A stretch of 62,190 bases of DNA, the filler included. It is 17 parts of 17 records of this genome, joined end to end, with 100 filler letters (N's around TTAATTAATTAA, not from the genome) between each part and the next. Parts side by side here need not be neighbours in the genome. Positions count along the whole stretch, not along the records: positions 24,445 to 26,643 come from SRR11831580_160; 16 more parts are not named here. One strand, given 5' to 3'. The position numbers and the translations under genes were made by a program. Positions 21,686-59,926 of the stretch are shown here, piece by piece; position 1 is the first letter of the stretch; the number at the start of each line of letters is the position of its first letter. The notes under the pieces are model-generated. The model saw only the letters and a list, made by a program, of their open reading frames with translations. It was not told the DNA's origin and made no database searches.

Positions 21686-22107
<422 letters not shown>

Positions 22108-22370
22108 CTACGCTCCTGAATCTTAAAGACAACGGCGGTGGCTACAGATAGAATTGCAAGCTTTCGTAACTCATGTCCGCTGTTGCGATGACTTCGTGTT
22201 AATCTTAACGTTATTACGGCATTGGCACGTCAGAACAAAATCTGAGAGGTGAATCCGTTGAGTATAATTATCTTAGCGACGATTTCGACGACTCAAGAGA
22301 ATAAATGACGTTTAAGCCATGAAACAAGCTAAAATCCTGCAAAAGACGAGTTTTTACGGGCGTATTTAAA

Positions 22371-23471
22371 GTGATAATCATAAGATATCTGGTGCGGGAG
22401 ACGCTCAAAAGCCAGCTGGCGATACTCTTCATCTTGCTTTTGATCTTCTTCTGTCAAAAGTTAGTGAGGATCCTCGGCGCAGCGGTTGACGGCGATATTC
22501 CGGCGAATCTGGTGCTCTCCCTTCTCGGGTTGGGCGTGCCGGAAATGGCGCAGCTTATCCTGCCATTAAGCCTGTTCCTCGGGCTGCTGATGACGCTGGG
22601 CAAACTGTATACCGAAAGTGAAATTACGGTAATGCATGCCTGCGGCCTGAGCAAAGCGGTTCTGGTGAAAGCGGCAATGATCCTTGCGGTATTCACGGCA
22701 ATCGTAGCGGCGGTTAACGTGATGTGGGCGGGACCGTGGTCATCGCGTCATCAGGATGAAGTGTTAGCAGAAGCGAAAGCGAACCCTGGCATGGCGGCGC
22801 TGGCGCAAGGGCAATTCCAGCAAGCGACTAATGGCAGCTCGGTGCTGTTCATCGAAAGCGTTGACGGCAGCGATTTCAAAGATGTGTTCCTCGCGCAAAT
22901 TCGACCAAAAGGTAATGCACGTCCTTCTGTGGTGGTGGCCGATTCCGGACATTTAACCCAGCTGCGCGACGGCTCCCAGGTCGTCACTCTCAACCAGGGA
23001 ACGCGCTTCGAAGGCACTGCAATGTTACGTGATTTCCGCATTACGGACTTCCAGGATTATCAGGCGATCATTGGTCACCAGGCGGTGGCGCTCGACCCGA
23101 ACGATACCGACCAGATGGACATGCGCACATTGTGGAACACTGACACCGATCGTGCTCGCGCAGAACTGAACTGGTGTATCACGTTGGTATTCACCGTGTT
23201 TATGATGGCACTTATGGTCGTACCGCTGAGCGTGGTTAACCCACGTCAGGGACGCGTACTGTCGATGCTGCCAGCCATGCTGCTGTATCTACTTTTCTTC
23301 CTGATCCAGACCTCCCTGAAATCGAACGGCGGTAAAGGTAAGCTGGACCCGACGCTGTGGATGTGGACCGTTAACCTGATTTATCTGGCTTTAGCGATTG
23401 TTCTCAACCTTTGGGACACCGTGCCGGTCCGCCGCCTGCGCGCCAGTTTTTCGCGTAAAGGAGCGGTGTGA
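22371..23471 (+). CDS. lptF: LPS export permease LptF
   Basis: 366 aa, GTG start, MIIIRYLVRETLKSQ... Confidence 0.97.
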   Translation: MIIIRYLVRETLKSQLAILFILLLIFFCQKLVRILGAAVDGDIPANLVLSLLGLGVPEMAQLILPLSLFLGLLMTLGKLYTESEITVMHACGLSKAVLVKAAMILAVFTAIVAAVNVMWAGPWSSRHQDEVLAEAKANPGMAALAQGQFQQATNGSSVLFIESVDGSDFKDVFLAQIRPKGNARPSVVVADSGHLTQLRDGSQVVTLNQGTRFEGTAMLRDFRITDFQDYQAIIGHQAVALDPNDTDQMDMRTLWNTDTDRARAELNWCITLVFTVFMMALMVVPLSVVNPRQGRVLSMLPAMLLYLLFFLIQTSLKSNGGKGKLDPTLWMWTVNLIYLALAIVLNLWDTVPVRRLRASFSRKGAV

Positions 23472-24344
23472 TGCAACCTTTTGGCGTACTTGACCGCTAT
23501 ATCGGTAAAACTATTTTCACCACCATCATGATGACACTGTTCATGCTGGTGTCGCTGTCGGGCATTATCAAGTTTGTCGATCAGCTGAAAAAAGCCGGGC
23601 AGGGGAGTTACGACGCGTTAGGCGCAGGAATGTATACCTTGCTGAGCGTGCCGAAAGATGTGCAGATCTTCTTCCCGATGGCGGCTCTGCTTGGGGCGTT
23701 GCTTGGTCTTGGGATGCTGGCGCAGCGCAGCGAACTGGTGGTGATGCAGGCTTCTGGTTTTACCCGTATGCAGGTGGCGCTGTCGGTGATGAAAACCGCC
23801 ATTCCGCTGGTCTTGCTGACGATGGCGATTGGCGAATGGGTCGCGCCGCAGGGCGAGCAGATGGCGCGTAACTACCGTGCGCAGGCGATGTACGGCGGCT
23901 CGTTGCTCTCTACCCAGCAAGGCTTATGGGCGAAAGATGGCAACAACTTCGTCTACATTGAGCGGGTTAAAGGTGACGAAGAGTTAGGTGGCATCAGCAT
24001 TTATGCCTTTAACGAGAATCGTCGTCTGCAATCCGTACGCTATGCCGCTACTGCGAAGTTTGACCCGGAACATAAAGTCTGGCGTCTGTCGCAGGTTGAT
24101 GAATCTGATCTGACCAATCCGAAACAGATTACCGGTTCGCAGACGGTGAGCGGCACCTGGAAAACCAACCTCACGCCGGACAAACTGGGCGTGGTGGCGC
24201 TGGACCCGGATGCACTCTCTATCAGCGGTTTGCACAACTATGTGAAGTATCTGAAGTCGAGCGGTCAGGATGCCGGACGTTATCAGCTCAACATGTGGAG
24301 CAAAATCTTCCAGCCGCTATCTGTGGCGGTGATGATGCTGATGG
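23471..24344 (+). CDS. lptG: LPS export permease LptG (3' truncated)
   Basis: MQPFGVLDRYIGKTI...SELVVMQASG. Confidence 0.96.
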
Positions 24345-24539
24345 NNNNNNNNNNNNNNNNNNNNNNNNNNNNNNNNNNNNNNNNNNNNTTAATTAATTAA
24401 NNNNNNNNNNNNNNNNNNNNNNNNNNNNNNNNNNNNNNNNNNNNGTTGCGTGTGGTATCAGAAAACCGCGTTCGAAAGACGAACGAGACAGAAACAAACA
24501 TCACCGACTCGCCGTACACACGAACACACACAAACACAC

Positions 24540-24746
24540 CTTTCGAATTCCGGGATTGCATCAACGGATGACTCGGTGAGCTTCCACACACGGAGACCCC
24601 GCTTCTCACGCACTGCATTGCCCATCACCAGTCAGATCACATCAATCCACTCTAACGTAATTGGAATTGAAAACAGACACACCTGCGAATTGCATGAGCG
24701 GTGCTGTCTGTGACGGCCTTGAAGGGGCTGTGGTGGTATCAGTCAT
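24540..24746 (-). CDS. Eukaryotic spliced gene, 5' fragment, gelsolin/villin-like
   Basis: Exons 24746-24683 and 24612-24540 with a GT-AG intron 24682-24613 (70 nt) and the next donor GTGTGT at 24539. Product MTDTTTAPSRPSQTAPLMQFAVREKRGLRVWKLTESSVDAIPEFE resembles the gelsolin domain-1 start (GL.IW.I....L..VP). Confidence 0.5.
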
Positions 24747-25030
24747 GCTTTCACACACACAGTGGTGTTGCTCTGCGTGCTCGCAAACGGAGCGGACAAG
24801 GGTACACGACAAAGGCTGTGTGCGCGTGAAAATGTGTCCACGCACGTGGAATGGATCGTGATGACGGTGATGACGGATCTAAGATCTATGCAGATTTTTG
24901 GTTCGATTTTTTCCACGGCGCGGTTCACGGTTTTTGGTTGAATATCGCCCTGAGTTTATAGTTGGTGGTGTTAGCTGCGGTCCTTGTTCGTTCTTCTCTT
25001 TCGCTCCGGGTGCTCCTCTGTTTTGCGGCC

Positions 25031-26643
25031 ATGCAAACACGAGTAGAGCTGATTAATGCCTGCCTGAAGGGCGATGTTTCTGCCGGGGATGAGAATGATC
25101 AAATGTTTATCAAGCAGGTGATGTATGGACTCGAACGATATGAGAAATTGATCAAGGTTCGTGGTTCGGATTCGTTGATTGACTCAGCGTCGTTGTTTAC
25201 GCTTCTCTCCGATTCTGTACAGGTTGTGACGTCGGCTCTCTTCCACAAACACGGTGGGGAGTGCAATCGTGAGGATACTGGTTTGTACAAAGTGCTAATT
25301 TATCTAGCCCTCATTCGGATCGATGAGTTGACGTGGGCTGAGTTCCGACGGTTTGTGGACTCCTATGATGAAATCAAAATGGTACGCCGGAGTTTTGGTA
25401 CTCTTCGTCTCCGCGCCCTGCAGTTGTGCGTGTGTGTTTGTGCGTTAGTGTGGGCTGGTGTTTGCGTTTCCTGTTATTTATTCGTGTATGTGTGTGTGTG
25501 TTTGTGTAGGTTCCTCTGCTTGCGTTTCTGTACGATATGCAGAGCGTAGACCGGTGGCTGCGGGACGGGTGGATGAAACTGTACGACAAATATTCGTTGT
25601 TGATGTTGCTGCCGTTGCTGCGGTTGCTGCGGTTGTTGCTGCCGTTGCTGCGGTTGTTGATTGTGGTGCATGATGTGTGTGTCCGTTGTGTTGTTGTCGT
25701 TGTTGTGGTTGTTGTAGCAACACTTTCTGTAATTGTAATTGTTGTTGTTCTTGTTGTTGTGTTTGTGTGCCTATGTCTTTGTGTGGCAGGACTGCTTGTA
25801 AGCTTGTTATGTTGTGCTTGTGTGTGCCCCTGTTGTACACATTCGACATGGGTAGCACTCCGCTGGTTCTTTCCGTTCTTTCTGCGTACATGTGGCCGGG
25901 TGTTTTTCTGTGTTCGTGTGTCTCTGTTTGTGTTCTCCTGCTGATGTCGTCCGTGTCTCTCTCTCTCCGTTGTGTGTGCGTGTGTCTGTATAGATACGAC
26001 GTGCAGTATGTCAATGATGTGTTGATTGGAAATATTCAAAAGTATATGGACCAGGCCACGGCCCTCTTGCAACTGCTACGGGAACGGCTGTCAGGTATGT
26101 GTGCGCGTCTTCTTTTTCCTTTGTGTGTTGCGTTGTCTGCGTATGTGTGTGTGTCTCTGTGTGTTCTTGTTCGATGGTCGCTGCCTCTCTTATTTGTCTT
26201 TGTTCTGTCTCTGTTTTGTTTCTGTTGAACAGGCGCTCTCTCTGCGACGGTGGCAGCTGAGAAACGTGCCGCTTCGACTGTTATTGCGCCCTTTAATCTG
26301 ACTGCACCCAGACCACGGCTGCTGCCAGAACCAGAACCTATTCCTGTGCAGTTTAAGGTGTGCGAACGTGTGTGCGTTTGTTCACCTATGCTTGTGTGGT
26401 TTACTGTGCTGTACTGTGTGAACGTGTGTTGTTTAGGTGTGTCTGTGCGTATGACTGCTTTGTTGTGCTGTAGTCCATCAGTTGGTCCTCTGCTCGTCCC
26501 GTTTGTGTGTATTTTTTCCCTCATGTTTATATATCTTTGTGTGTAGGCGCGGCCCGTCCCCCCATCCACGTACACAGAGACAGACACTGTACGAGCCACC
26601 CTCGAAGCCAAGAAGGAGAGTAATAGGCGAGAAATTGCTGACA
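25031..26643 (+). CDS. Eukaryotic 6-exon gene, CFAP99-like cilia/flagella-associated protein (3' truncated)
   Basis: Exons 25031-25156, 25223-25381, 25510-25580, 25994-26094, 26233-26357 and 26547-26643. All five introns are GT-AG and phases join without stops (226 aa). Motifs YEKLIKVV, LYKVLIYLAL, WMKLYD.QYV, PFNLT.PRPR..PEPEPIP, ARPVP.STY. Confidence 0.75.
25605..25760 (+). repeat. Intronic micro/minisatellite (GTTGCTGCS 9-mers, then imperfect GTT repeats)
   Basis: GTTGCTGCC/GTTGCTGCG units at 25605-25652, then (GTT)n tracts, all inside intron 3 (25581-25993). Confidence 0.8.
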
Positions 26644-27211
26644 NNNNNNNNNNNNNNNNNNNNNNNNNNNNNNNNNNNNNNNNNNNNTTAATTAATTAAN
26701 NNNNNNNNNNNNNNNNNNNNNNNNNNNNNNNNNNNNNNNNNNNGGGTGGGTTTCAGCGGTGTGGCCGTGCGGTGTACCAAGCTGTGTGTGGCGGCGAAAG
26801 CGTGTGGATGCGTTGTGTGTTAGTGATGGAGTATTGATTTTGCGAGTGTGAGTGTGAGTACGGGGTGTGTGTCCTTTTATTATGTATGCATGTGTGTATG
26901 TGCTTCCACCGAAGGTATTTTGTGTCTCGATACACGATCGGCGTTCACATATGAGTGGGAGATCCCGGCTTGAAACAGGTGTCCACACACAATGTCGAGC
27001 TTGCTTTGTAGGCGGCGGCAGCGATGCCACAGCACCAGCATGTTGCGACGGATGCGCCCGCAGTGGGCAGCAACCACGCCCCAGCGCATACAAGGAGTGG
27101 CATACTGGCAGCACACAGACGAGTCCGTACGATGCCCCTCACGAACGACGCCCACATTCCTGCAAGGCCGGGTTCTGCATACGTCTGTAGAAGTCGCACA
27201 CGGCGGACAAA

Positions 27212-27592
27212 TTAGCTGGAATCTTTGCCGTGCTCTGCTTCCCACTTCTTTTTGAGCGCACGAACATGCTCTTTCCACCTCTCCAAACTGCGCTCATACA
27301 TATCCATGACGCACGACTCGCACCCTCCTACCCACACACAGTGAATACAGTGAATGGGGGCTCGAAATATTTCGAACGTTAGCGTACCACCACAACAGTC
27401 ACCGTCTGCCGGCTGCTGCGGTTTCTTACGAGCATCTTTCTGAATGATAAAGAAGTCGTGTCAAAGCGATATGCAAATGAGCATCGTGTGACGTACCATA
27501 TACGGCGCATTCTCATCAAATTCTTCTTCTTCCTCTTTCTTCTCGGCGAGGAACTCCGCCAGAGACTGGCGCGGCGGTGCACGTTCGCCCAT
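27212..27592 (-). CDS. Eukaryotic 3-exon gene, 87-aa Oxidoreductase-like domain (PF09791/OXLD1-type) protein, complete
   Basis: Exons 27592-27497, 27439-27388 and 27327-27212; GTACG...AG introns of 57 and 60 nt. Product MGERAPPRQSLAEFLAEKKEEEEEFDENAPYMKDARKKPQQPADGDCCGGGCESCVMDMYERSLERWKEHVRALKKKWEAEHGKDSS*. Confidence 0.8.
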
Positions 27593-27874
27593 GCTTCTCA
27601 GTACAAATCGGTCGGCAGAATACAACGGCGACCAAATCTTTCAACAAGCGTTCTAGATTGCTGATTCTTACAAACAAAGGTACCCCTGTTTGTTCATGCT
27701 TCAATGGCAGCAAGAAGGGTCTATGACCCGCGGAGTTTGTTCCGTTGGAGCCGTCTTTTCGCGAAACGAACCGGCACCAGCTTTCGTCAATCGACGAGCT
27801 TGATGCTTCCGTGCTTCTACTCACAGCACCGAAGTGTTACTCTTATTCTCCATATCTTAACAGAAGGAAAGTGA

Positions 27875-28301
27875 ATGGAAGAGAACAGAAAGCAAGCAAA
27901 GAGGGACGCTCAGGGTCTGCCTCAGACTCATCCCGAATCAGTACCCGTGAAAGTACCGCAGGAACCGCATGGGACACTATCTAGTGGCCCTGCACCAAAC
28001 CTAGATCCTGCTAGCGGTGAGCAGCTATTTCCTTTCGAAGATCGATGGAAAGGCGTGAAAGATGCTCCTCATCACCCAGGTAATTCTTCACCGGTTTCCT
28101 CGAAATTTAATGGTGCGCTGATGTGTGGCAGGGTCCGAACGACCGCACGTCATGGGAGAGATGGGTCACGCACACTCGGGCGATCTGCCGAAGGGCATTG
28201 CAGTGCCCCCGCCTGCCGGATCGCAATGGCAGCAGCAGCAACAAGGAGGGACGGGCCATCAGCAAACTGGGACCAATACGAACTGGTTCCAGCAACAGTG
28301 A
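27875..28301 (+). CDS. Putative eukaryotic 2-exon gene, 124-aa hydrophilic Q/P/G/H-rich protein of unknown function
   Basis: Exons 27875-28079 and 28132-28301 with intron GTAATT...GCTGATGTGTGGCAG (52 nt); ends ...PPPAGSQWQQQQQGGTGHQQTGTNTNWFQQQ*. The 5' end is uncertain. Confidence 0.5.
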
Positions 28302-28610
28302 GGAGCGGTACAGTTGACCCACCCTTGATGAACGAACTACGACGTTGCGGGTCGAGATGGTGTTATACAGCATTGCAAGTTCAAGTTCTATTCATTCACG
28401 TTATCAGGTCCGATTTCCCAGATCTAGACTCTCATCTGTGGACTCATCGGTGCCGTGCACAATCGCACACCAAGCGTGCAGCGGCATTTGAACATTATCG
28501 GCATACAGGTGATACAGCACACATAATGAAGCAGCAAAGAGAAACACGCAGCAGCGAACAGATCCACAGTAGCAAGCTTCGACCTTCGACCAACATGAAA
28601 ACTCAGTTCA

Positions 28611-28787
28611 TTAATCACGGTCGTCCTGCTCCTTCTTTGACCGCTCCGGCTCCTTTGCCCACGGCGCCTTCTCGTATGTGAGTCTTCCCCTTGCCACCGG
28701 ATGCGCTGTTGACGGAAGCGGAATCTGTGAATTGGATCTTGAAGCAGAAACTCGCTTATGCTCAGCAATCTTCTCCATAAGCTCTTC
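28611..28787 (-). CDS. Possible last exon of another eukaryotic gene (5' cut by spacer)
   Basis: Open frame EELMEKIAEHKRVSASRSNSQIPLPSTAHPVARGRLTYEKAPWAKEPERSKKEQDDRD* followed by T/G-rich 3'-UTR-like sequence. Confidence 0.4.
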   Translation of the reverse strand, partial: EELMEKIAEHKRVSASRSNSQIPLPSTAHPVARGRLTYEKAPWAKEPERSKKEQDDRD

Positions 28788-28996
28788 CNNNNNNNNNNNN
28801 NNNNNNNNNNNNNNNNNNNNNNNNNNNNNNNNTTAATTAATTAANNNNNNNNNNNNNNNNNNNNNNNNNNNNNNNNNNNNNNNNNNNNTAGTGTGTTCCT
28901 CTGCTCCCGGCAATGCACCGAAATCGCATTGCGCCATTGATGTAATTATCGCAGCCTTACCGGAGAAAAACAGCGGAACGGCGATGGTTTAGAAAT

Positions 28997-43369: not shown

Positions 43370-44626
43370 CCCGGTCAGTTGCGGCCAGTCAGCAAAGTCC
43401 ATCGCCCACGCCAGCCGCGCACGATTAAGCTCATCAGAAGGAAGCGTCTGGGTTTGTTCGTCGTTAATGCTTTGCAGCAGGTTTTCCAGACGCCGCAGGA
43501 ACAGATACGCCACTCGCAATTGTTCAGCATCGTTTTCAGAAAGCAGATGCAGCTCGGCAATGGCGCTGAGCGTTGGCAGTAAAGAGCGCGATTGCAGCGA
43601 CGGTTCGCGTCCGCCGCGAATGAGCTGGAACACCTGAACGATAAATTCAATTTCGCGAATGCCGCCTGCGCCGAGTTTGATATTGTCGGTCAAACCACGT
43701 CGACGCACTTCACGGGCAATCATCCCTTTCATGTTGCGCAGCGACTGAATCACGCTGAAATCGATGTAACGACGGAAAACAAACGGGCGCAGCATCGCAC
43801 GCAACTCGTTAGCATAGACGCCTTCGCTATCGCCCATAATCCGCGCCTTGACCATCGCGTAACGCTCCCAGTCGCGCCCCTGCTCCTGGTAATAATCTTC
43901 CAACGCGGCAAAGCTCAGCACCAGCGGGCCACTTTCGCCAAACGGACGCAGCCGCATATCCACGCGATAGACGAAGCCATCCTGCGTTGGTTGATCCAGC
44001 ACTTTAATCAGCCGCTGCCCCATGCGGGTAAAAAACTGCGCGTTATCCAGTTCCCGGCGTCCACCCTGCGTACAACCATGTTCCGGCCAGGCAAAAATCA
44101 GATCGATATCAGAGGAGAAATTCAGCTCCCCACCGCCCAGCTTACCCATGCCTAAAATCAGCAGCGGTTGCGCTTCGCCCTGCGCATTGCACGGCGTTCC
44201 CCACTCGCGGCAGCAGGCGTCATACAGCCAGTCACGCGCCGCAACAATCAGCGTCTCCGCCAGATAGCTGAGCTGCTGCAATATGCTCTCTTCAGTAACC
44301 AGTGCCAGCGTTTGCGCCCAGGCGATGCGCACCATAATGCGCCGCCGGAATAGCCGCAGCTCGCGCATTAACCCGGCTTCGTCACTCACATTACAGAGCG
44401 CCTCCTGCAACCATGCCGCGTAATGCTGCCATTCGTCGGCCTGCGGCGGTTGGCTTTCCAGTTCCGTCAGCCACTCTGGATGCGCAATCACGCTGTCCTG
44501 CACAAAATCACTAAAAGTAAGTACTGACTTCGCCTGTGCGCTAAGTGATTCCTCGGCTAAAGGCTCTGGCAGCCGCTCAACAACGGTCTGCCAGTACTGC
44601 TGTAACGGTGAAGAGAGCGGCTTCAT
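43370..44626 (-). CDS. glnE: Glutamine synthetase adenylyltransferase/adenylyl-removing enzyme (3' truncated)
   Basis: [12 protein letters not shown] from 44626; [18 protein letters not shown]. Confidence 0.96.
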
Positions 44627-44648
44627 AAGCGATTTTATCCTTGCCTGA

Positions 44649-45950
44649 TTAACGTTTTCCGCTGTGCAACCAGAACGGTTCCTGATTGTTTGCCTCATTA
44701 CGGAAATGTTCAATTTCGATGCGTTGCCCGGTCGCAATAGCGTGATGCAGCCCCTGCCAGTTCTCCAGCCAGGCTTGCGCGACGACAGGATCATAGTAAC
44801 CCGCCAGCAACAGTATTGAGTCAATATCACGCGTCAGGCGTGGCAACTGGTCACGGTAGCGATCGCCTAACGGCTGGCAGAAAACGCTTTTCAGTTCAGC
44901 GGCATGGCGGGAAAGATGGATATCGGCAAAGCGTTTGAAGGAGTCGCTGATTTTGCCCTGCGCTTTGGCATCTAAAAATGGCTGCCATGCTTTGCTTACC
45001 AACCATTCGGTCAACGCCAGCTTCGCCATTGCCGTTTCGGTAGAGTAGACCGCCGTCACGGCAGACACCGCAGAAGCAATGGTCGCCTCGCATTGAGTCA
45101 GCAGATCACGTAAGTGAGTGCTCGCTTTACGCGGCACAATACCACCGAACAGCATCAGCGTATGACGGACCAGGCTAATGGCTGCCAGCACCTGTTCTTT
45201 CGCCGCATCGTTGCCGCGTACCCACAGTTCTTCATGATACTGCCATTGCGCTAACGCCAGCTCGAGCGCCGCTTCCAGCCCCTGTTCCACATCGGCTTTT
45301 GCCGCAACATGCAAAATGGTGGTCGGTTTGATTTCACGCGCCGGATTGCCCTGCGCCAGATGATAGCCACGCGCCGCTTTGCTCAGGCTGCCCTGGCGTA
45401 ATCCGGTTTGCGATACCAGTTGGTTCGCCAGTTTCAGCACCGCGCGCGTGTCGCCGCTAAGCAGTTCCAGTTCCAGCTCACAGATAGGTTCAGCAAATTC
45501 ACCCGCTTTCACTTCCCCCTGGTCGAGGGCGATTTCAATTTGGCTACCATCGACCGCCACCAGCCATTTTTCGCGATAAAAATCGGTGCTGAACAGCGGC
45601 TGCACGCGGGAGGCGAGATCGGCGGGCAATTCGCCGTTCGGCCAGACTTCCGTCGGTAACTGCGCCAGGTCGAGCGTCGGTTCGCTCAACGCCACGTTAT
45701 ATTCCGGGCGCTGATGTAAGCCGCCTGTCACTCTTCCTGCAACTTTCATGGTCATCTCATAGCGACCGTTTTCGCCACGAATACGTAAGCCCATATCGTG
45801 CCCACGCAGCCAGTTATCCGGCGTTTCGTAGTAAATATTCAGCAACTGCACGGGGTCATGGTGCTCGCCGCCCAGCGTATTGAGATGGTCACGCAACGCC
45901 TCAACGGCACTGTGATTAACAATAAACTTTAATTCGATTTCCTGAGCCAT
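44649..45950 (-). CDS. ygiF: Inorganic triphosphatase (CYTH-CHAD)
   Basis: MAQEIELKF (EXEXK motif), 433 aa. Confidence 0.95.
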
Positions 45951-46191
45951 GGCCTTTACTTATCGGTTATGTCACATAAGTGACGATGAACGGCGAACTT
46001 AATGCGATCTTTTTTGTCAGTAGATAGTATTTTGCGCCAAATTGCCATGCAACGGGCAATTTGACGGGCGTAAAAGTTTGAAGCAGTGGCAAGACCTGAC
46101 ACAGAGGATTCCGATTGATGTCGAATGCTTTGCGTAGCGACACTGATGCCACTACTATCGTTCCACTTTCCATGACAATAACGACAGCCTG

Positions 46192-46812
46192 ATGCCAAAA
46201 TTACGCCTGATCGGATTAACTTTACTCGCACTTAGCGCGACTGCCGTCTCACACGCTGAAGAAACGCGCTATGTTTCCGACGAACTGAATACCTGGGTCC
46301 GCAGCGGTCCGGGAGATCATTATCGCCTCGTGGGCACGGTTAACGCCGGCGAGGAAGTGACCTTATTACAAACTGACGCCAACACCAATTATGCCCAGGT
46401 GAAAGACAGCTCTGGCCGTACCGCCTGGATCCCGTTGAAACAACTTAGCACTGAGCCAAGCCTGCGCTCCCGTGTGCCAGATCTGGAAAATCAGGTCAAA
46501 ACCCTGACCGATAAACTCACCAATATCGATAACACCTGGAATCAGCGCACCGCAGAAATGCAGCAAAAAGTGGCGCAGAGCGACAGCGTGATCAACGGGT
46601 TAAAAGAAGAAAATCAGAAACTGAAAAACGAGCTGATTGTCGCGCAGAAAAAGGTCGATGCCGCCAGCGTACAGCTGGATGACAAACAGCGCACCATCAT
46701 CATGCAATGGTTTATGTATGGCGGTGGCGTGCTGGGGCTTGGCTTGCTGCTCGGTCTGGTACTGCCGCACCTGATCCCAAGCCGCAAACGCAAAGATCGC
46801 TGGATGAACTAA
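46192..46812 (+). CDS. ygiM: SH3b-domain membrane protein YgiM
   Basis: Signal peptide, SH3b domain, coiled coil, C-terminal TM. Confidence 0.93.
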   Translation: MPKLRLIGLTLLALSATAVSHAEETRYVSDELNTWVRSGPGDHYRLVGTVNAGEEVTLLQTDANTNYAQVKDSSGRTAWIPLKQLSTEPSLRSRVPDLENQVKTLTDKLTNIDNTWNQRTAEMQQKVAQSDSVINGLKEENQKLKNELIVAQKKVDAASVQLDDKQRTIIMQWFMYGGGVLGLGLLLGLVLPHLIPSRKRKDRWMN

Positions 46813-46875
46813 ATCGCCTTCTTCGTTGCACTGTCTTATTATTAGGAATTGTGTATTTGACGAAGGGATGATGGC

Positions 46876-48114
46876 GTGAAGATTTATCTGGTCGGTGGTG
46901 CTGTTCGGGATGCATTGTTAGGGCTACCGGTCAAAGACAGAGATTGGGTGGTGGTCGGCAGTACGCCACAGGAGATGCTCGACGCGGGCTACCAGCAGGT
47001 AGGCCGCGATTTTCCTGTGTTTCTGCATCCGCAAACGCATGAAGAGTATGCGCTGGCACGTACCGAACGGAAATCCGGTTCCGGTTACACCGGTTTTACT
47101 TGCTATGCCGCACCGGATGTCACGCTGGAAGATGATCTTAAGCGTCGCGATCTGACCATTAATGCGCTGGCCCAGGACGATAACGGCGAGATTATCGACC
47201 CGTACAACGGTCTGGGCGATCTGCAAAATCGTCTGTTGCGCCATGTTTCCCCCGCTTTTGGCGAAGATCCGTTACGCGTATTGCGCGTGGCGCGTTTTGC
47301 TGCGCGTTATGCCCACCTCGGTTTTCGTATTGCCGATGAAACTCTGGCGTTGATGCGCGAGATGACCCATGCGGGTGAACTGGAACACCTGACGCCTGAA
47401 CGGGTATGGAAAGAGACGGAAAGCGCCCTCACCACCCGCAATCCACAGGTGTTCTTCCAGGTACTGCGCGATTGCGGCGCACTGCGCGTTTTATTCCCGG
47501 AAATTGACGCACTGTTTGGCGTTCCGGCCCCTGCCAAGTGGCATCCGGAAATCGATACGGGTATTCATACCTTAATGACGCTCTCAATGGCGGCGATGCT
47601 GAGTCCGCAGGTCGATGTCCGTTTCGCAACTTTATGCCACGATCTCGGTAAAGGGCTGACGCCGCCAGAACTCTGGCCGCGTCATCATGGTCATGGCCCG
47701 GCGGGTGTTAAGTTAGTGGAACAACTATGCCAGCGTCTGCGCGTGCCAAATGAAATTCGCGATTTAGCCAGACTGGTGGCTGAGTTTCACGATCTCATCC
47801 ACACCTTCCCAATGCTGAACCCAAAAACCATCGTCAAATTATTTGATTCCATCGATGCCTGGCGTAAACCGCAGCGTGTCGAGCAACTGGCGCTGACCAG
47901 CGAGGCTGACGTGCGCGGCAGAACCGGTTTTGAATCAGCGGACTACCCGCAAGGCCGCTGGTTGCGCGAAGCCTGGGAAGTGGCGCAGTCAGTGCCGACA
48001 AAAGCCGTCGTTGAAGCGGGATTTAAAGGTGTGGAGATTCGCGAGGAGCTGACCCGACGGCGGATTGCGGCGGTAGCCAGCTGGAAGGAACAACGTTGCC
48101 CAAAGCCTGAATGA
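46876..48114 (+). CDS. cca: CCA-adding tRNA nucleotidyltransferase
   Basis: [27 protein letters not shown] domain. Confidence 0.98.
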
Positions 48115-48127
48115 GTATTGGGCATTT

Positions 48128-48154
48128 TGCCGGATGCGGCGTAAACGCCTTATC
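48128..48154. repeat. Partial REP at contig edge
   Basis: TGCCGGATGCGGCGTAAACGCCTTATC. Confidence 0.85.
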
Positions 48155-48286
48155 NNNNNNNNNNNNNNNNNNNNNNNNNNNNNNNNNNNNNNNNNNNNTT
48201 AATTAATTAANNNNNNNNNNNNNNNNNNNNNNNNNNNNNNNNNNNNNNNNNNNNCCCCCCGCCGCAGCGGAGGGCAAATGGCAACC

Positions 48287-50422
48287 TTACTCGCCCTGTT
48301 CAGCAGCCGGAGCTTCCGGTGCTGCAGCAGGTTGAGACTGCTCAGTCGCTTCTTTAATGCTCAGACGGATACGGCCCTGGCGATCAACTTCCAGAACTTT
48401 CACCGGTACTTCCTGACCCATCTGCAGGTAATCGGTCACTTTCTCAACGCGTTTGTCAGCGATTTGAGAGATGTGGACCAGACCTTCTTTACCGCCGCCG
48501 ATGGCAACAAATGCGCCAAAGTCAACGATACGGGTCACTTTACCAGTGTAGACGCGGCCCACTTCGATTTCTGCAGTGATCTCTTCGATACGACGAATAG
48601 CATGTTTCGCTTTCTCGCCGTCGGTCGCTGCAATCTTCACAGTACCGTCATCTTCGATTTCGATGGTGGTGCCAGTTTCTTCGGTCAGAGCACGGATTAC
48701 AGAACCGCCTTTACCGATAACATCTTTGATCTTGTCCGGGTTGATCTTGATGGTATGGATACGCGGTGCGAACTCAGAGATATCGCCACGCGGCGCGTTG
48801 ATCGCCTGTTCCATTACGCCCAGGATATGCAGACGCGCACCTTTAGCCTGGTTCAGCGCAACCTGCATGATCTCTTTGGTGATACCTTCAATTTTGATAT
48901 CCATCTGCAGTGCAGAGATACCGTCGCGGGAACCTGCAACTTTGAAGTCCATATCGCCCAGGTGATCTTCGTCGCCCAAAATGTCAGACAGTACAACGTA
49001 GTTGTCGCCTTCTTTCACCAGACCCATTGCGATACCCGCAACGGCAGCTTTGATCGGCACACCTGCGTCCATCAGCGCCAGAGACGCGCCGCACACGGAA
49101 GCCATAGAAGAGGAACCGTTGGATTCAGTGATTTCAGACACAACACGTACGGTGTACGGGAATTTGTCCATATCCGGCATGACTGCCAGCACGCCGCGCT
49201 TCGCCAGACGACCGTGACCAATTTCACGACGCTTCGGAGAACCGACCATGCCGGTTTCGCCTACGGAGTACGGAGGGAAGTTGTAGTGGAACAGGAAGGT
49301 ATCGGTACGTTCGCCCATCAGTTCATCAAGAACCTGCGCGTCACGAGCAGTACCCAGCGTTGCGGTAACCAGCGCCTGCGTTTCACCACGGGTGAACAGC
49401 GCAGAACCGTGAGTACGCGGCAGCACGCCAGTACGCACATCCAGACCACGGATCATATCTTTTTCACGACCGTCGATACGCGGTTCGCCTGCCAGTACGC
49501 GGCTACGAACAACGTTTTTCTCGATCGCGTGCAGAATTTCACCCAGTTCGTTTTCGTCCAGGGTTTCGTCTTCAGCAAGCAGCGTCGCGATGGTTTCAGA
49601 TTTGATGACATCAACCTGCGCATAACGCTCTTGTTTGTCGGTGATGCGGTAAGCATCGCTCAGGCGAGCTTCAGCCAGTGCAGCAACGCGCGCGTTTAGC
49701 GCTTCGTTTACCGGCTCCGGCTGCCAGTCCCAACGCGGTTTACCGGCTTCTTTCACCAGTTCATTGATGTTCTGAATAACAACCTGCTGTTGTTCATGAC
49801 CGAACACTACTGCGCCCAGCATCTGGTCTTCGCTCAGCAGTTGAGCTTCAGATTCAACCATCAGTACAGCGGCTTCAGTACCGGCAACAACCAGATCCAG
49901 TTTGCTCTCTTTCAGCTCGTCCTGAGTCGGGTTCAGTACGTACTGGTCATTGATGTAACCTACGCGGGCAGCACCAATCGGGCCATTGAACGGAATACCA
50001 GACAGAGACAGCGCTGCGGAAGCACCAATCATCGCGACGATATCCGGGTTAACTTGCGGGTTAACAGAAACCACGGTGGCGATAACCTGAACTTCGTTGA
50101 CGAAGCCTTCCGGGAACAGCGGGCGAATCGGGCGGTCAATCAGACGCGCGATCAGGGTTTCGCCTTCGCTTGGGCGGCCTTCACGACGGAAGAAGCTACC
50201 CGGGATACGACCAGCAGCGTAGGTACGCTCCTGATAGTTAACGGTCAGTGGGAAGAAGTCCTGACCTGGTTTGGCTTTTTTCTGGCCAACAACGGTAACG
50301 AATACCGCGGTGTCATCCATGCTAACCATAACAGCGGCAGTAGCCTGACGAGCCATCATGCCGGTTTCCAGAGTCACGGTGTGTTGGCCGTACTGGAATT
50401 TACGAACGATCGGATTAAGCAA
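48287..50422 (-). CDS. pnp: Polynucleotide phosphorylase
   Basis: TTG start at 50422 gives 711 aa; two RNase PH domains, KH and S1. Confidence 0.97.
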
Positions 50423-50436
50423 TGTAATATCCTTTC

Positions 50437-50652
50437 TCTTTCTTAGACAGTACCTTACGGCACTGGTGTTAATACCCGATCTTCTGCGCATCCTCGCGAC
50501 TAATGACAACCCTAACCCAGCTCTATGTGGGTAAAGCCTCTCATTAGCCGCGCGAACCTCTGCAACGGAAGATCATTCATAGCAACAATACATTAGTTTC
50601 CAGTGAATTGCTGCCGTCAGCTTGAAAAAAGGGGCCACTCAGGCCCCCTTTT
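50437..50652 (+). ncRNA. sraG: SraG antisense sRNA (approximate ends)
   Basis: Known location between pnp and rpsO on the opposite strand; ends at the bidirectional hairpin. Boundaries are inferred from recalled K-12 synteny. Confidence 0.6.
50625..50652. terminator. Bidirectional terminator after rpsO
   Basis: AAAAAAGGGGCC-ACTCA-GGCCCCCTTTT. Confidence 0.8.
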
Positions 50653-50668
50653 CTGAAACTCGCAAGAA

Positions 50669-51034
<366 letters not shown>

Positions 51035-51086
51035 TTAAGCGGCAGTATTCTACTCGTAGCGACCTGTTATCGCAAGACGGTTAACA

Positions 51087-52031
51087 TTACGCCGGGTATT
51101 CAACCACCAGGCGACGAGGCGCAACGCGGCCTTCATCGTCAATTTCGCCCATACCGATAAATTTGCCGTTCTCACCTTCCGTGACGCGAACCAGTCCTTC
51201 CAGTGGCGCACCAGATGTACGAACCGGGTTACCATTTTTGAAGTAAACAGAAGACGTTAACGGAAGATTCACCACCGGATAGTCCGAAGCTGGACTGTCC
51301 ATTGGCATCAGTAATGGATCAAGTAACTCCGCGGCTGGAATATCCTGCTGTTCAGCTTGCTCAACAAGTTCACGCAGGTGCTCCAGGGTCACCATCCGTT
51401 CAACCGGATATTTACTTACCGCCAGACGGCGCAGGTAAATAACATGCGCGCCACAGCCGAGTTTTTCACCCAGGTCATCAATGATGGTGCGGATATAAGT
51501 GCCTTTTGAGCAGTGAATTTCCAGCTCCAGCTCATTGCCTTCATGGCGAATAAACAGCAATTCATAAACGGTAATCGGACGCGCTTCACGCGGAACTTCA
51601 ATGCCCTGACGCGCATATTCGTACAGTTTTTTGCCCTGATATTTCAGTGCTGAATACATCGAAGGGATCTGTTCGATATCGCCACGGAAAGTATCCAGTG
51701 CCGCTGCCAGCTGCTCTGCGCTAAAGGTTACCGGACGTTCTTCAACGATCTGTCCGTCGGCATCAGAAGTATCGGTACGCTGTCCAAGACGCGCAATGAC
51801 CCGATAGCGTTTGTCGGAGTCCAGCAGATACTGGGAAAACTTCGTCGCTTCCCCGAGGCAAATCGGCAACATGCCGGTCGCCAGCGGGTCCAGCGCACCG
51901 GTATGCCCGGCACGGTTGGCGTTATATATACGTTTCACTTTTTGCAGCGCATCGTTGCTGGACATACCCTGAGGTTTATCCAGCAACAAAACGCCGTTAA
52001 TGTCGCGACCGCGACGACGAGGACGACTCAT
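51087..52031 (-). CDS. truB: tRNA pseudouridine-55 synthase
   Basis: [12 protein letters not shown], 314 aa. Confidence 0.98.
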
Positions 52032-52432
52032 TAGTCCTCCTTGCTGTCGTCCGGGTTAACACGACGTTCTTCGTCATGTTTGACCACGCTGGTCACCAGG
52101 TTTGACATGCGCATCCCTTCAACCAGAGAGTTGTCGTAGAAGAAGGTCAGTTCCGGCACGATACGCAGGCGCATCGCTTTCCCCAGCAGGCTGCGGATGA
52201 AACCAGAAGCTTCTTGCAACGCTTTGATGCCCGCTTTAACCGCGTCTTCATCTTTGTCGTTGAGGAACGTCACATATACTTTGGCATACGCCAGGTCGCG
52301 AGACATTTCGACACCGGAAACGGTGGTCATCATGCCCAGGCGAGGATCTTTAATTTCACGCTGCAGGATGAGAGCGATCTCTTTTTGCATTTCCTGCGCT
52401 ACGCGCTGCGGGCGACCAAATTCTTTCGCCAT
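52031..52432 (-). CDS. rbfA: Ribosome-binding factor A
   Basis: [16 protein letters not shown], 133 aa. Confidence 0.97.
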
Positions 52433-52448
52433 AATAAATTCTCCTGAC

Positions 52449-52474
52449 AAAAAAGGGGCTGTTAGCCCCTTTTT
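52449..52474 (-). terminator. Terminator between infB and rbfA
   Basis: AAAAAAGGGGCT-GTT-AGCCCCTTTTT. Confidence 0.75.
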
Positions 52475-52508
52475 AAAATTAATTTCAGGTGGAAGGGCTG
52501 TTCACGTT

Positions 52509-52580
52509 GACCTGATAAGACGCGCCAGCGTCACATCAGGCAATCCATGCCGGATGCAGCGTAAACGCCTTATCCCGCAT
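52509..52580. repeat. REP pair downstream of infB
   Basis: CCTGATAAGACGCGCCAGCGTCACATCAGGCA and TGCCGGATGCAGCGTAAACGCCTTATCC. Confidence 0.85.
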
Positions 52581-52595
52581 GGAACCCTAAAAACC

Positions 52596-55268
52596 TTAAG
52601 CAATGGTACGTTGGATCTCGATGATTTCGAATACTTCGATCACATCGCCAGTGCGGACGTCGTTGTAGTTCTTAACGCCGATACCACATTCCATACCGTT
52701 ACGGACTTCGTTAACGTCATCTTTGAAGCGGCGCAGGGACTCCAGCTCGCCTTCGTAGATAACCACGTTGTCACGCAGAACGCGGATCGGGTTGTGACGT
52801 TTAACCACACCTTCGGTAACCATACAGCCTGCGATGGCACCAAATTTCGGCGATTTGAACACGTCACGAACTTCCGCCAGACCGATAATCTGCTGTTTCA
52901 GTTCCGGAGACAGCATACCGCTCATCGCCGCTTTCACTTCGTCAATCAGGTTATAGATGACGGAGTAGTAACGCAGATCCAGGCTTTCCGCTTCAATCAC
53001 TTTACGTGCAGAGGCATCAGCACGTACGTTAAAGCCAACCAGGATGGCGTTGGACGCCGCAGCCAGGGTGGCGTCGGTTTCGGTGATACCACCTACGCCA
53101 GAACCGATGATCTTCACTTTAACTTCGTCAGTAGACAGTTTCAGCAAGGAGTCGGAGATCGCTTCGACAGAACCCTGTACGTCTGCCTTCAGGACGATAT
53201 TCACTTCGTGAACTTCGCCTTCGGTCATGTTGGCGAACATGTTCTCGAGTTTAGATTTCTGCTGACGCGCCAGTTTAACTTCGCGGAATTTACCCTGACG
53301 ATAGAGTGCAACTTCACGCGCTTTCTTCTCGTCACGTACAACGGTAACTTCATCACCCGCAGCCGGTACGCCGGACAGGCCGAGGATTTCCACCGGAATG
53401 GACGGACCCGCTTCCAGCACTTCCTGACCCAGTTCGTTACGCATCGCACGAACACGACCGTATTCGAAGCCACACAGAACGATATCGCCCTTGTGCAGAG
53501 TACCTTCACGTACCAGAACGGTAGCAACCGGACCACGACCTTTATCGAGGAAGGATTCGATAACCGCACCGCTCGCCATACCTTTACGTACCGCTTTCAG
53601 CTCCAGAACTTCCGCCTGCAGCAGGATAGCGTCCAGCAGTTCATCGATACCGGTACCCGCTTTCGCAGATACGTGTACGAACTGGCTTTCACCGCCCCAC
53701 TCTTCCGGCAGGATGCCGTACTGGGAGAGTTCGTTCTTAACGCGATCCGGATCAGCTTCTGGTTTATCGATCTTGTTCACTGCAACCACCACCGGTACCT
53801 GCGCCGCTTTCGCGTGCTGGATTGCTTCGATGGTCTGCGGCATCACACCGTCGTCGGCAGCAACAACCAGGACTACGATGTCCGTTGCCTGCGCACCACG
53901 AGCACGCATTGAAGTAAACGCGGCGTGCCCCGGGGTGTCCAGGAAGGTGATCATGCCGTTTTCAGTTTCAACGTGGTATGCACCAATGTGCTGGGTAATG
54001 CCGCCCGCTTCGCCAGAGGCCACTTTCGTTGAACGAATGTAGTCCAGCAGAGAGGTTTTACCGTGGTCAACGTGACCCATGATGGTCACAACCGGCGCGC
54101 GCGGTTCAGCCGCAGCACCCGTGTCACGGTCGCTCATTACCGCCTCTTCCAGCTCGTTTTCACGACGCAGGATAACTTTATGGCCCATCTCTTCAGCAAC
54201 CAGCTGTGCGGTTTCCTGATCGATAACCTGGTTGATGGTTGCCATTGCGCCCAGTTTCATCATCGCTTTGATGACCTGAGAGCCTTTAACCGCCATCTTG
54301 TTCGCCAGTTCGCCAACGGTGATAGTTTCGCCGATCACAACGTCACGGTTAACGGCCTGAGCAGGCTTCTGGAAGCCTTGCTGCAGCGAAGAACCTTTAC
54401 GTTTTCCGCCTTTACCGCCACGTACTGCTGCGCGTGCTTCTTCACGATCAGCTTTTGATTCAGCGTGTTTGTTGCCTTTCTTCGGACGCGCTGCTTTCGC
54501 GTTACGACCACGGCCACGGCCGCCTTCGACTTCACGATCGCTTTCGTCTTCTGCCTGGCGAGCATGTTGAGAAGTAGTGACGTGATAATCGCTGGAATCT
54601 TCAGTCGGTTCCGCGTTATCAGTCCATTTGTTTTCTTCCGCCATACGACGTGCTTCTTCAGCAACGCGACGTGCTTCTTCTTCGAGTTTACGACGCGCTT
54701 CTTCTTCAGCTTTACGCTTGAGCTCTGCAGCTTCCTGCTCACGGCGGGCTTTTTCAGCCTGGGCGTTTTTAGTCATATCGTCTTGTTGATTGCTCACTTT
54801 GTCTTTTTCCGCAGCTTCACGTTTCGCTTGTTCAGCAGCTTCACGCTTAGCTTGTTCTGCGGCCTCACGTTCAGCTTTTTGTTGCGCCTCGCGTTTAGCC
54901 GATTCTTCTGCCTCACGACGGGCTTGCTCTTCCGCTTCACGCTGCGCTTGCTCTTCCGCTGCAAGGCGTTCAGCCTCTTGCGGATCGCGTTTCACAAAGG
55001 TGCGTTTCTTGCGGACTTCGATTTGTACCGATTTGCTTTTTCCACCGGTACCAGGAATGTTAAGGGTGCTGCGTGTTTTACGTTGCAGCGTCAATTTGTC
55101 CGGGCCTGAATTTTTCTGATTCAGGTGGTCAATCAAAGTCTGTTTCTCTTGTGCAGACACAGAGTCGTCAGCAGACTTCCGGATACCTGCATCAGCAAAT
55201 TGCTGTACCAGGCGTTCCACGGAGGTCTGTCGCTCTGCGGCCAGCGTTTTAATCGTTACATCTGTCAT
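52596..55268 (-). CDS. infB: Translation initiation factor IF-2
   Basis: 890 aa; [17 protein letters not shown]. Confidence 0.99.
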
Positions 55269-55292
55269 GCTGTTCCTTCCTGCTACAGTTTA

Positions 55293-56267
<975 letters not shown>

Positions 56268-56367: not shown

Positions 56368-57229
56368 TTTTCAGGAAGGTAGAGAGGTAGTCACGCGGGG
56401 CCAGCAGTAACCACACCGGCAGCACCGCCGCCACAAAACCGTAACCCACCAGCATCCAGGTCAACTGCACGCCGGTAAAGTCAAAGTACGGTGCCCAGGT
56501 CGGACTTTCTGCCACCCAGCCGCCAGAGATAATGGCGAAAATCAGGAATACCAGACCGATGACCGACACTTCGCCAATACGCCCCGGACGCAGATAGCGC
56601 AGGTAGATCCCCATAAACAGCGCCAGCGGAATGGTGAACGCAACGGTATATGTTCCCCACGGGCTATGAGTCAGGGCTTTCACCACGATCATCGCCAGCA
56701 CTGCAAGGATAATGACCATGATCATAAAGCAGGCCACCAGCGCAATCACCCCGGCGGTTGGCCCCATCTCTTCTTTGACCAGCTCACCCAGCGAGCGACC
56801 GTCACGGCGCGTAGAAACAAACAGCACCATGAAATCCTGCACCGCACCGGCGAGAACCACCCCAGCGAGCAGCCAGATCATCCCCGGCAGGTAGCCCATT
56901 TGCGCCGCCAGTACCGGCCCCACCAGCGGACCTGCTCCGGCAATGGCCGCAAAATGGTGACCGAACAGCACTTTCTTGTCCGTCGGCACATAGTCCAGCC
57001 CGTCGTTATGGCGCACCGCTGGCGTCATACGCGTCGGGTCAACCGCCAGCACATTTTTGGCGATATACAGCCCATAAAAACGGTAAGCGATCAGATAGAT
57101 ACAGACCGACGCCACCACAATCCACAGCGCGTTGATCTGTTCCCCACGATTTAAAGCAATGTATCCCAGAGCAAATGCTCCCATTACAGAGAGCACTGTC
57201 CAGACGAGGTATTTCCCTGATTTGTTCAT
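56368..57229 (-). CDS. cstA: Carbon starvation protein A (3' truncated)
   Basis: MNKSGKYLVW...GHHFAAIAGAGP. Confidence 0.95.
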
Positions 57230-57346
57230 AGTTGTTATCCGTGTGCGTGTCCATAGAGATGTTACATTTTGTTTCTATAACATCTTTGTACAATTTAACA
57301 ACACAGCAACCATGTAAATCGGAGTTGAAACCAATATTTAACTTAA

Positions 57347-57368
57347 CAATGTTAACTCGATCACTCCG
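57347..57368. promoter_or_regulatory. Probable CRP site upstream of cstA
   Basis: Minus strand AGTGA-N6-TAACA; cstA is known to be CRP-activated. Confidence 0.55.
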
Positions 57369-57409
57369 TTAACCGAGTTTTCCTGCAATCTCATCTAATT
57401 CTGTCGGGT

Positions 57410-58571
<1,162 letters not shown>

Positions 58572-58572
<1 letters not shown>

Positions 58573-59428
58573 TATTTCACCTCGCGGGAGAGTAGCTTCC
58601 ACCAGGCGTCGATGGTCGGGTTTTTCGCCAGCATGACAAAGTCGATATCACCATGCACTTTGCGCCAGCGCGCCGCCAGCGCCATCATGCGCACCGAATC
58701 CAGACCGTAGTCGATCAGGTTGTCGTCATCGAACGGTTCATCGGACTCGTCCAGCAACGGCAGGATCACCTCACGCAGCGCCGCTTTGCTGGCGGGGATA
58801 GGTGCTGGCAGTAATTCTTCAGTCATCACCACCCGGCCAGAACGTCCGGCCACATATTTCAGCGACATCAAATGCTCGTCACGGCTGAAATCGGCCAGCG
58901 CATCCGCCACCATAAACGGTTTAATATCGCGCATAAATGCGTCGGTTGCGGTGGTCATACAGCCAATGTGGGCATATACCCCGGTAATAATCAGCTGGTT
59001 ACGTCCACTCTCTTTCAGCATTTGCTCCAGCGGAGAACGATGAAACGCGCTGTAGCGCCACTTCACCAGCACCGTGTCGTCGGCATCTGGCGTCAGGCGA
59101 TCCACCACCTTTTGCTGTTCCGGCGAGCGGGTCAGGCCCGGCCCCACATATCATTCAACAGCGCCCGATCTTCATCGCTCTGCTCTTTCGGCTGGGCGGT
59201 GTAATAAACCGGGATATTGTGCTGTTTGCAGTAGTCGCGCAGCGCAGCAATATTCGCGATCACCTGCTCCATCATCGGGCAGTTCTCGCCCCAGAAGCTG
59301 ACAAAATAGTCCTGCATATCATGGATTAACAACGCGGCACGTTGCGGTTCAAAGGCCCAGTCAACTTTATTCTGCGGAATATCGTGAGACTCCGGCAGTG
59401 CGTAAGCCTGTAATTTTGGAATAGCCAT
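58572..59428 (-). CDS. entB: Isochorismatase/aryl carrier protein EntB, -1 frameshift at ~59142-59145
   Basis: Split between ORFs 59132-59428 and 58572-59147; span 857 nt. Adding one G gives ...DMWGPGL.... GLDS phosphopantetheine site present. Confidence 0.94.
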
Positions 59429-59441
59429 CGTGTTCTCTCCT

Positions 59442-59826
59442 TCAGGCTGATGCGCGTGACGCCAGCCACTGACGTAATTGTTTTTTATCGACTTTCCCGA
59501 CCGCCGTCAGCGGAAGTGAATCCACACACTCCACGCGATCCGGTAATTTAAATTCGGCAATACCCTGTTCACGCAGGAAACGACGCACCTGCACCGCGCG
59601 CAGCGGCTCTTTTACCACCAGATAAGCGCAGCTTTTTTCGCCCATCAGCTCATCTTCCATGCTCACCAGTGCGGCGTAGATCACCGCCGGGTGGCGCAGC
59701 AGCAGGTTTTCGATCTCTTCGGCAGCGATCTTCTCGCCGCCACGGTTAATCTGATCTTTCTCGCGCCCCTGCACGGTGATGTAACCCTCTGGATCAATAG
59801 AGATCAGATCGCCGGAACAGTAAAAA
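59442..59826 (-). CDS. entE: 2,3-dihydroxybenzoate-AMP ligase, C-terminal fragment
   Basis: [25 protein letters not shown]. Confidence 0.94.
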
Positions 59827-59926
59827 NNNNNNNNNNNNNNNNNNNNNNNNNNNNNNNNNNNNNNNNNNNNTTAATTAATTAANNNNNNNNNNNNNNNNNN
59901 NNNNNNNNNNNNNNNNNNNNNNNNNN

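Follow-up and report, generated by a model that had tools for sequence, protein, structure and literature searches.

Positions 25031-26643 very probably hold the 5′ part of a nuclear gene with spliceosomal introns, an orthologue of the flagellar gene CFAP99/FAP99, on a contig from a poorly sampled eukaryote. The family is a known and conserved one, and the gene fragment is an ordinary new member of it, truncated. The whole stretch of DNA analysed, 62,190 nt in length and called the window here, consists of 17 contigs of 2.0–8.0 kb joined by identical 100-nt linkers; the contig with the gene fragment is one of them.

Exon–intron structure of the gene fragment

The initial annotation held that the removal of five introns leaves an uninterrupted frame of 226 aa. 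Recomputed from the coordinates, this frame is as claimed, and all five introns run from GT to AG. The predicted parts of the gene, with the contig that carries them and the linkers of the window, are as follows:

7389-7488, 10260-10359, ... 59827-59926: linkers between contigs, each made of 44 N, TTAATTAATTAA and 44 N
24445..26643: eukaryotic contig carrying the gene fragment, 2199 nt, bounded by 100-nt linkers
24445..25030, + strand: region ahead of the gene, presumably promoter and 5′ UTR; positions 24959-24961 form an in-frame TAG
25031..25156, + strand: exon 1, 42 codons, with the ATG start
25157..25222, + strand: intron 1, 66 nt, donor GTTCGT, acceptor CAG, in frame and stop-free
25223..25381, + strand: exon 2, 53 codons, the best conserved piece
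25382..25509, + strand: intron 2, 128 nt, donor GTACGC, acceptor TAG
25510..25580, + strand: exon 3, 71 nt, ending after codon base 2
25581..25993, + strand: intron 3, 413 nt, donor GTACGA, acceptor TAG
25994..26094, + strand: exon 4, 101 nt, aligned without indel, the same exon being present in P0004
26095..26232, + strand: intron 4, 138 nt, donor GTATGT, acceptor CAG
26233..26357, + strand: exon 5, 125 nt, with a conserved PFNLT.PRPR..PEP motif
26358..26546, + strand: intron 5, 189 nt, donor GTGTGC, acceptor TAG
26547..26643, + strand: exon 6, incomplete, 32 codons and 1 base, cut by the contig end

The joined exons comprise 679 nt, or 226 codons and one base, and, counted from the start codon at 25031, contain no stop. 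Between this ATG and the in-frame TAG, which precedes it by 23 codons, there is no other ATG, and the N-terminus of the model is level with residue 1 of several homologues in the alignment. The upstream region matched no Rfam family at the gathering score. A T/G-rich tract precedes the acceptor in each of the five introns. Because the open frame runs into the contig end at 26643, with N from 26644 onwards, the 226 residues constitute a 5′ fragment and not the complete six-exon gene that had been claimed; the six exons are the first ones of the gene, and the last of them is cut short.

It had also been said that the gene is invisible to an open-reading-frame track, which overstates the matter: no single frame spans the gene, but the exons themselves sit inside open frames. 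Exons 1 and 2 lie together in the stop-to-stop frame 24962-25549 (195 aa), since intron 1 is in frame and stop-free, and each of the other exons is contained in a frame of 50–184 aa. An antisense frame at 25374-26075 (233 aa) was rejected as a gene, its translation being a low-complexity T/H/Q/N sequence, a reflection of the G/T-rich intron 3. The same intron holds a tandem repeat at 25605-25659, which can be described by a 9-nt unit, GTTGCTGCC, or alternatively by a 21-nt unit (2.2 copies, 96% matches). Searching the window by tblastn with 23 long homologues, we found no further CFAP99 exons elsewhere in it; five scattered matches outside 25091-26351, with E between 0.13 and 0.97, were rejected as the rest of the gene.

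Family membership and splice junctions

The CFAP99/FAP99 identity, proposed in the initial annotation, is borne out by a significant match to FAP99 and by collinearity with full-length relatives. The query for the searches was the unspliced piece 25031-25381, which comprises exon 1, 22 residues translated from intron 1, and exon 2. By phmmer, its best match in the PDB was Chlamydomonas FAP99 (7n6g_3F, 7sqc) at E=1.7e-9, the only significant one. Exons 1 and 2 align to this protein in order: residues 70-99 are matched by exon 1 and residues 104-150 by exon 2 (29.7 bits), and the intron-1 translation occupies the gap between them. For mouse CFAP99 (9ijj_J) the same piece gave E=0.14, by itself not a significant value. 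Rows for Legionella SidJ and MlaE (E 0.09–0.74) either overlap the intron-1 translation or are weak, and were set aside as chance. So was the sole PDB match of exon 3 alone, a de novo designed helix bundle; exon 4 alone gave no PDB match.

Against 1.84 billion representative proteins, the two-exon piece found 72 relatives at E<=1e-3, mostly as two stretches flanking the intron translation, and many of these relatives are 740–850 aa long. The spliced 226-aa model matches all 72, collinearly. Among the 23 homologues of at least 450 aa, 19 align in one stretch that extends from about residue 20 of the model into exon 6; the alignments of P0050 and P0066 stop at model residue 189, in exon 5, and those of P0053 and P0038 split or stop near residue 145. 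With the two-exon piece, the 23 scored 36–52 bits (P0022: 44.6); with the spliced model the scores rose, the highest being the 160 bits of P0022. When P0022 was itself compared with the PDB, only two proteins were matched, FAP99 over residues 4-727 (2e-103) and mouse CFAP99 (2.3e-65); judged by these matches, P0022 is a full-length FAP99/CFAP99 homologue. In blastp comparisons with ten longer homologues, the model showed 34–42% identity over 166–219 aligned positions.

One cluster of the relatives is named ‘Cilia- and flagella-associated protein 99’, with members from Pleodorina and one Volvox (Volvox africanus) record. Further cluster members with a named source are unnamed or hypothetical proteins from Pedinophyceae, Cymbomonas, Cyanophora, Rhodomonas and the annelid Owenia. 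As far as is known, all of these organisms are flagellated or have ciliated cells.

Three further searches returned no family match. No Pfam family was found with seven exon pieces at E<=10; this blank is uninformative, since four full-length family members also give none, and the Pfam copy used holds no model of the family. A word-indexed protein search with a 117-aa piece against longer proteins yielded 230 candidates, none at E<=0.01, and in the ESM Atlas the best score was 0.79, to unrelated small proteins.

The fragment maps to about residues 40-290 of its full-length relatives (740–850 aa), or about the first third. The remaining two thirds, approximately, are missing from the window but presumably not from the organism, because the contig ends inside exon 6.

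To the level of single junctions, the model was compared with a family profile built from the 23 long homologues, the 226-aa model itself being left out. The spliced model scored 247.3 bits. We scored 108 alternative forms, comprising open-frame variants that use other GT/AG pairs no more than 60 nt away, together with five intron-retention forms, and one of them came out above the model: a form with the intron-4 donor at 26107, at 249.0 bits (+1.7). Counted by intron, alternatives above the model numbered 0 of 20 for intron 2, 0 of 14 for intron 3, 1 of 13 for intron 4 and 0 of 53 for intron 5. The donor at 26107 adds four residues and has the poorer donor sequence; because it scores 1.7 bits more and the added residues fall in a variable stretch, the intron-4 donor is the least certain of the junctions. 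Retention of intron 1, which would give a 22-aa insertion, lowered the score from 247.3 to 230.8 bits (−16.5). Of 200 shuffled models, 154 scored at all, with a maximum of 4.0 bits.

In a MAFFT alignment with 16 homologues, no indel occurs at any of the five junctions and conserved motifs flank each of them. Two of the later exons were also found individually: exon 3, aligned without indel, drew tblastn matches from 13 homologues, and exon 5 was matched by P0022 at 74% identity over 23 aa.

A group of close relatives bears on the junctions directly. The only relatives more than 50% identical to the window gene are fragments on short public contigs (P0001/P0014/P0073/P0074, P0002 and P0004), and all of these are prokaryote-style gene calls that run through introns, none of them full-length. 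Exon 1 is 64% identical to P0014/P0074, and exon 2 is 80% identical to P0001. Unlike the window gene, P0002 has no intron 1: precisely the 22 residues translated from that intron are absent from it. The P0073 gene call continues through an intron 1 of its own, giving a dissimilar text of 28 residues (84 nt, open) between well-conserved exons; in P0014/P0074 the frame ends inside intron 1, and P0001 begins at exon 2. Similarity to P0001, P0002, P0004 and P0073 is lost right after the same exon-2 end, ...IKM, and P0004 shows this end as well as both ends of exon 4. P0001, P0004 and P0073 share the exon ends of the window gene, and P0073, P0014 and P0074 share its N-terminal deletion. Read in this way, the close relatives give independent support for the predicted junctions. 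The open frame of intron 1 is probably a matter of chance, as 22 open codons are not rare. The five junctions rest on homology and splice consensus; splicing in vivo and expression of the gene are predicted.

The N-terminal deletion concerns a segment of about 22 residues after ...INACLK, which is absent from the model and present in all 16 of the aligned homologues. P0073 and P0014 have the same short form as the model. Since the DNA of exon 1 is continuous at this place and close relatives are equally short, we take the difference to be a lineage-specific deletion and not a missed exon.

Relatives in the central apparatus and a proposed role

The closest counterpart with a solved structure is FAP99 of Chlamydomonas reinhardtii (795 aa; 7n6g chain 3F, 7sqc), which has the same order of motifs in the part corresponding to exons 1-2. 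Through a close green-algal homologue, the volvocine P0044 (about 36% identity to the model over 167 aligned positions), the fragment maps to about residues 77-283 of the Chlamydomonas protein. Relative to that protein, the window gene lacks the N-terminal segment of about 22 aa, and about one third of the length is present. Mouse CFAP99 (648 aa; 9ijj chain J, from the sperm central apparatus) belongs to the same family by transitivity through P0022.

One study places FAP99 in the Chlamydomonas central-apparatus proteome and assigns it to the C1 microtubule; it also describes HA-tagged FAP99 as located exclusively in the central apparatus, and the fap99-1 mutant as having near-normal flagella and swimming slightly slower (PMC6548120). 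In cryo-EM work, a figure legend identifies FAP99 as a filament protein of the outer surface of C1 with a 32 nm repeat (PMC9113940, Extended Data Fig. 4 legend). A further report, on mouse sperm, locates CFAP99 along C1 with CCDC180 and CFAP221, its N-terminal domain touching the N-terminal domain of CCDC180 (PMC12297659). Reviews and a clinical study count CFAP99 among the components of the C1d projection (PMC7999657, PMC11651342).

By homology with these relatives, the encoded part is expected to be the N-terminal domain and the start of an extended region. A protein of filament-like shape would be expected, running along the C1 microtubule of the flagellar central pair on its outer side and recurring with a 32 nm period in the C1d region. 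The encoded N-terminal domain would contribute to the docking of neighbouring central-apparatus proteins, and such docking would fine-tune the beating of the flagellum rather than play an essential role in its assembly.

Origin of the contig and competing explanations

Fifteen of the 17 contigs in the window are Escherichia-like, matching the Escherichia genome G001 at 88–100%, a figure that for the last contig refers to its first 74 bases only. An E. coli match is absent for two contigs only, 24445-26643 and 26744-28788, the former having no match either to G001 or to 5426 complete E. coli genomes. It follows that the window strings together small, unplaced contigs from a eukaryote assembly, with heavy contamination by the E. 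coli cloning host. As its parts are separate contigs, and mostly those of the cloning host, gene neighbourhood in the window is meaningless, and the flanking contigs are no genomic neighbours of the CFAP99 fragment.

This composition bears on the claim that the source is flagellated. To our knowledge, the only setting in which CFAP99/FAP99 has been described is the central apparatus. We infer that the owner of the 2.2-kb contig possesses a motile flagellum with a central pair or did so until recently, and for that owner the claim is a fair one; it does not extend to the window, given its Escherichia-like contigs. The value of the gene as a phylogenetic marker, which had likewise been claimed, did not materialise. 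We ran a single-gene maximum-likelihood tree of 34 rows, from which 40 of the 72 matches (those shorter than 240 aa), with the closest fragments among them, were left out. The window row sits on a long branch (1.15) in an unresolved polytomy of 26 rows, outside any well-supported clade; its separation from a group of 8 rows, three named green algae among them (Pleodorina, Pedinophyceae and Cymbomonas), is weak. With its short length and high divergence, the fragment cannot place the organism. What it adds is one divergent sequence to a family that is without a Pfam model, and its significance beyond annotation is small.

A bolder scenario is that the contig comes from a deep, barely sampled protist lineage, in keeping with its unplaced row in the tree and with the short-contig fragments that are its only relatives above 50% identity. 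If the contig's owner had no described flagellated stage, the CFAP99 gene would suggest that this organism builds a hidden 9+2 motile flagellum, for example in gametes or zoospores, and the shared loss of about 22 aa in the N-terminal domain would be a lineage-specific change at the contact between CFAP99 and CCDC180. We consider this scenario improbable as a whole.

The fragment could also be real and yet say little about a flagellum of the organism that was sequenced. Contamination is demonstrably present, with most of the contigs Escherichia-like, and the CFAP99 fragment might come from a contaminating eukaryote and so be uninformative about the assembly organism. E. coli, however, is the cloning host, a by-product of the library whose presence does not point to mixed eukaryotic DNA, and the neighbouring contig at 26744-28788 is similarly G/T-rich, though this last point is an impression; we therefore hold a eukaryotic contaminant to be improbable too. 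Slighter still is the chance that the gene is dead, that is, a decaying CFAP99 pseudogene or a leftover fragment in an organism that has lost its flagellum. The long terminal branch (1.15), the absence of the N-terminal segment of about 22 aa and the fact that the first 226 codons alone are visible would agree with decay. On the other side, no stop interrupts any of the six exons, the splice sites follow the GT-AG consensus, every exon keeps motifs conserved in the family, and the profile score is 247 bits. Moreover, a close relative keeps the exons at 64–80% amino-acid identity with an unlike intron translation, the pattern expected under purifying selection, and the 22-aa deletion is common to this relative and hence old and tolerated.

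Least probable of all, in our estimate, is a paralogue or domain-shuffled protein whose likeness to CFAP99 ends with the N-terminal domain and whose C-terminal part and role differ. The C-terminal two thirds do lie beyond the contig end, and the Cyanophora homologue P0031, at 1740 aa, indicates that architectures vary or that some gene models are fused. Against this, all 23 of the long relatives belong to one family, the PDB search brought up no second family except for sub-threshold chance rows, and the 34-row tree contains no paralogous clade.

The second contig without an E. coli match, 26744-28788 (2045 nt), has a G/T-rich look that resembles the CFAP99 contig, again as an impression. It contained no Pfam family above the cut-off, no Rfam family and no CFAP99 exon; a Pfam match to Patched (E=0.026) fell below the cut-off and was rejected.

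As for the Escherichia-like contigs, we compared three of them with the 5426 complete E. coli genomes, and all three were 100% identical to E. coli genomes. The contigs at 21686-24344 and 48255-56267 match K-12 laboratory strains (DH5alpha, MG1655, C600 and DH1, among others) at 100%, and the contig at 28889-32190 matches other E. coli strains at 100%. Four contigs (21686-24344, 43370-48154, 48255-56267 and 56368-59826) are only 88–92% identical to G001. Because two of these four are 100% K-12, G001, which is listed as 44% complete, represents a different Escherichia lineage and not the contaminant.
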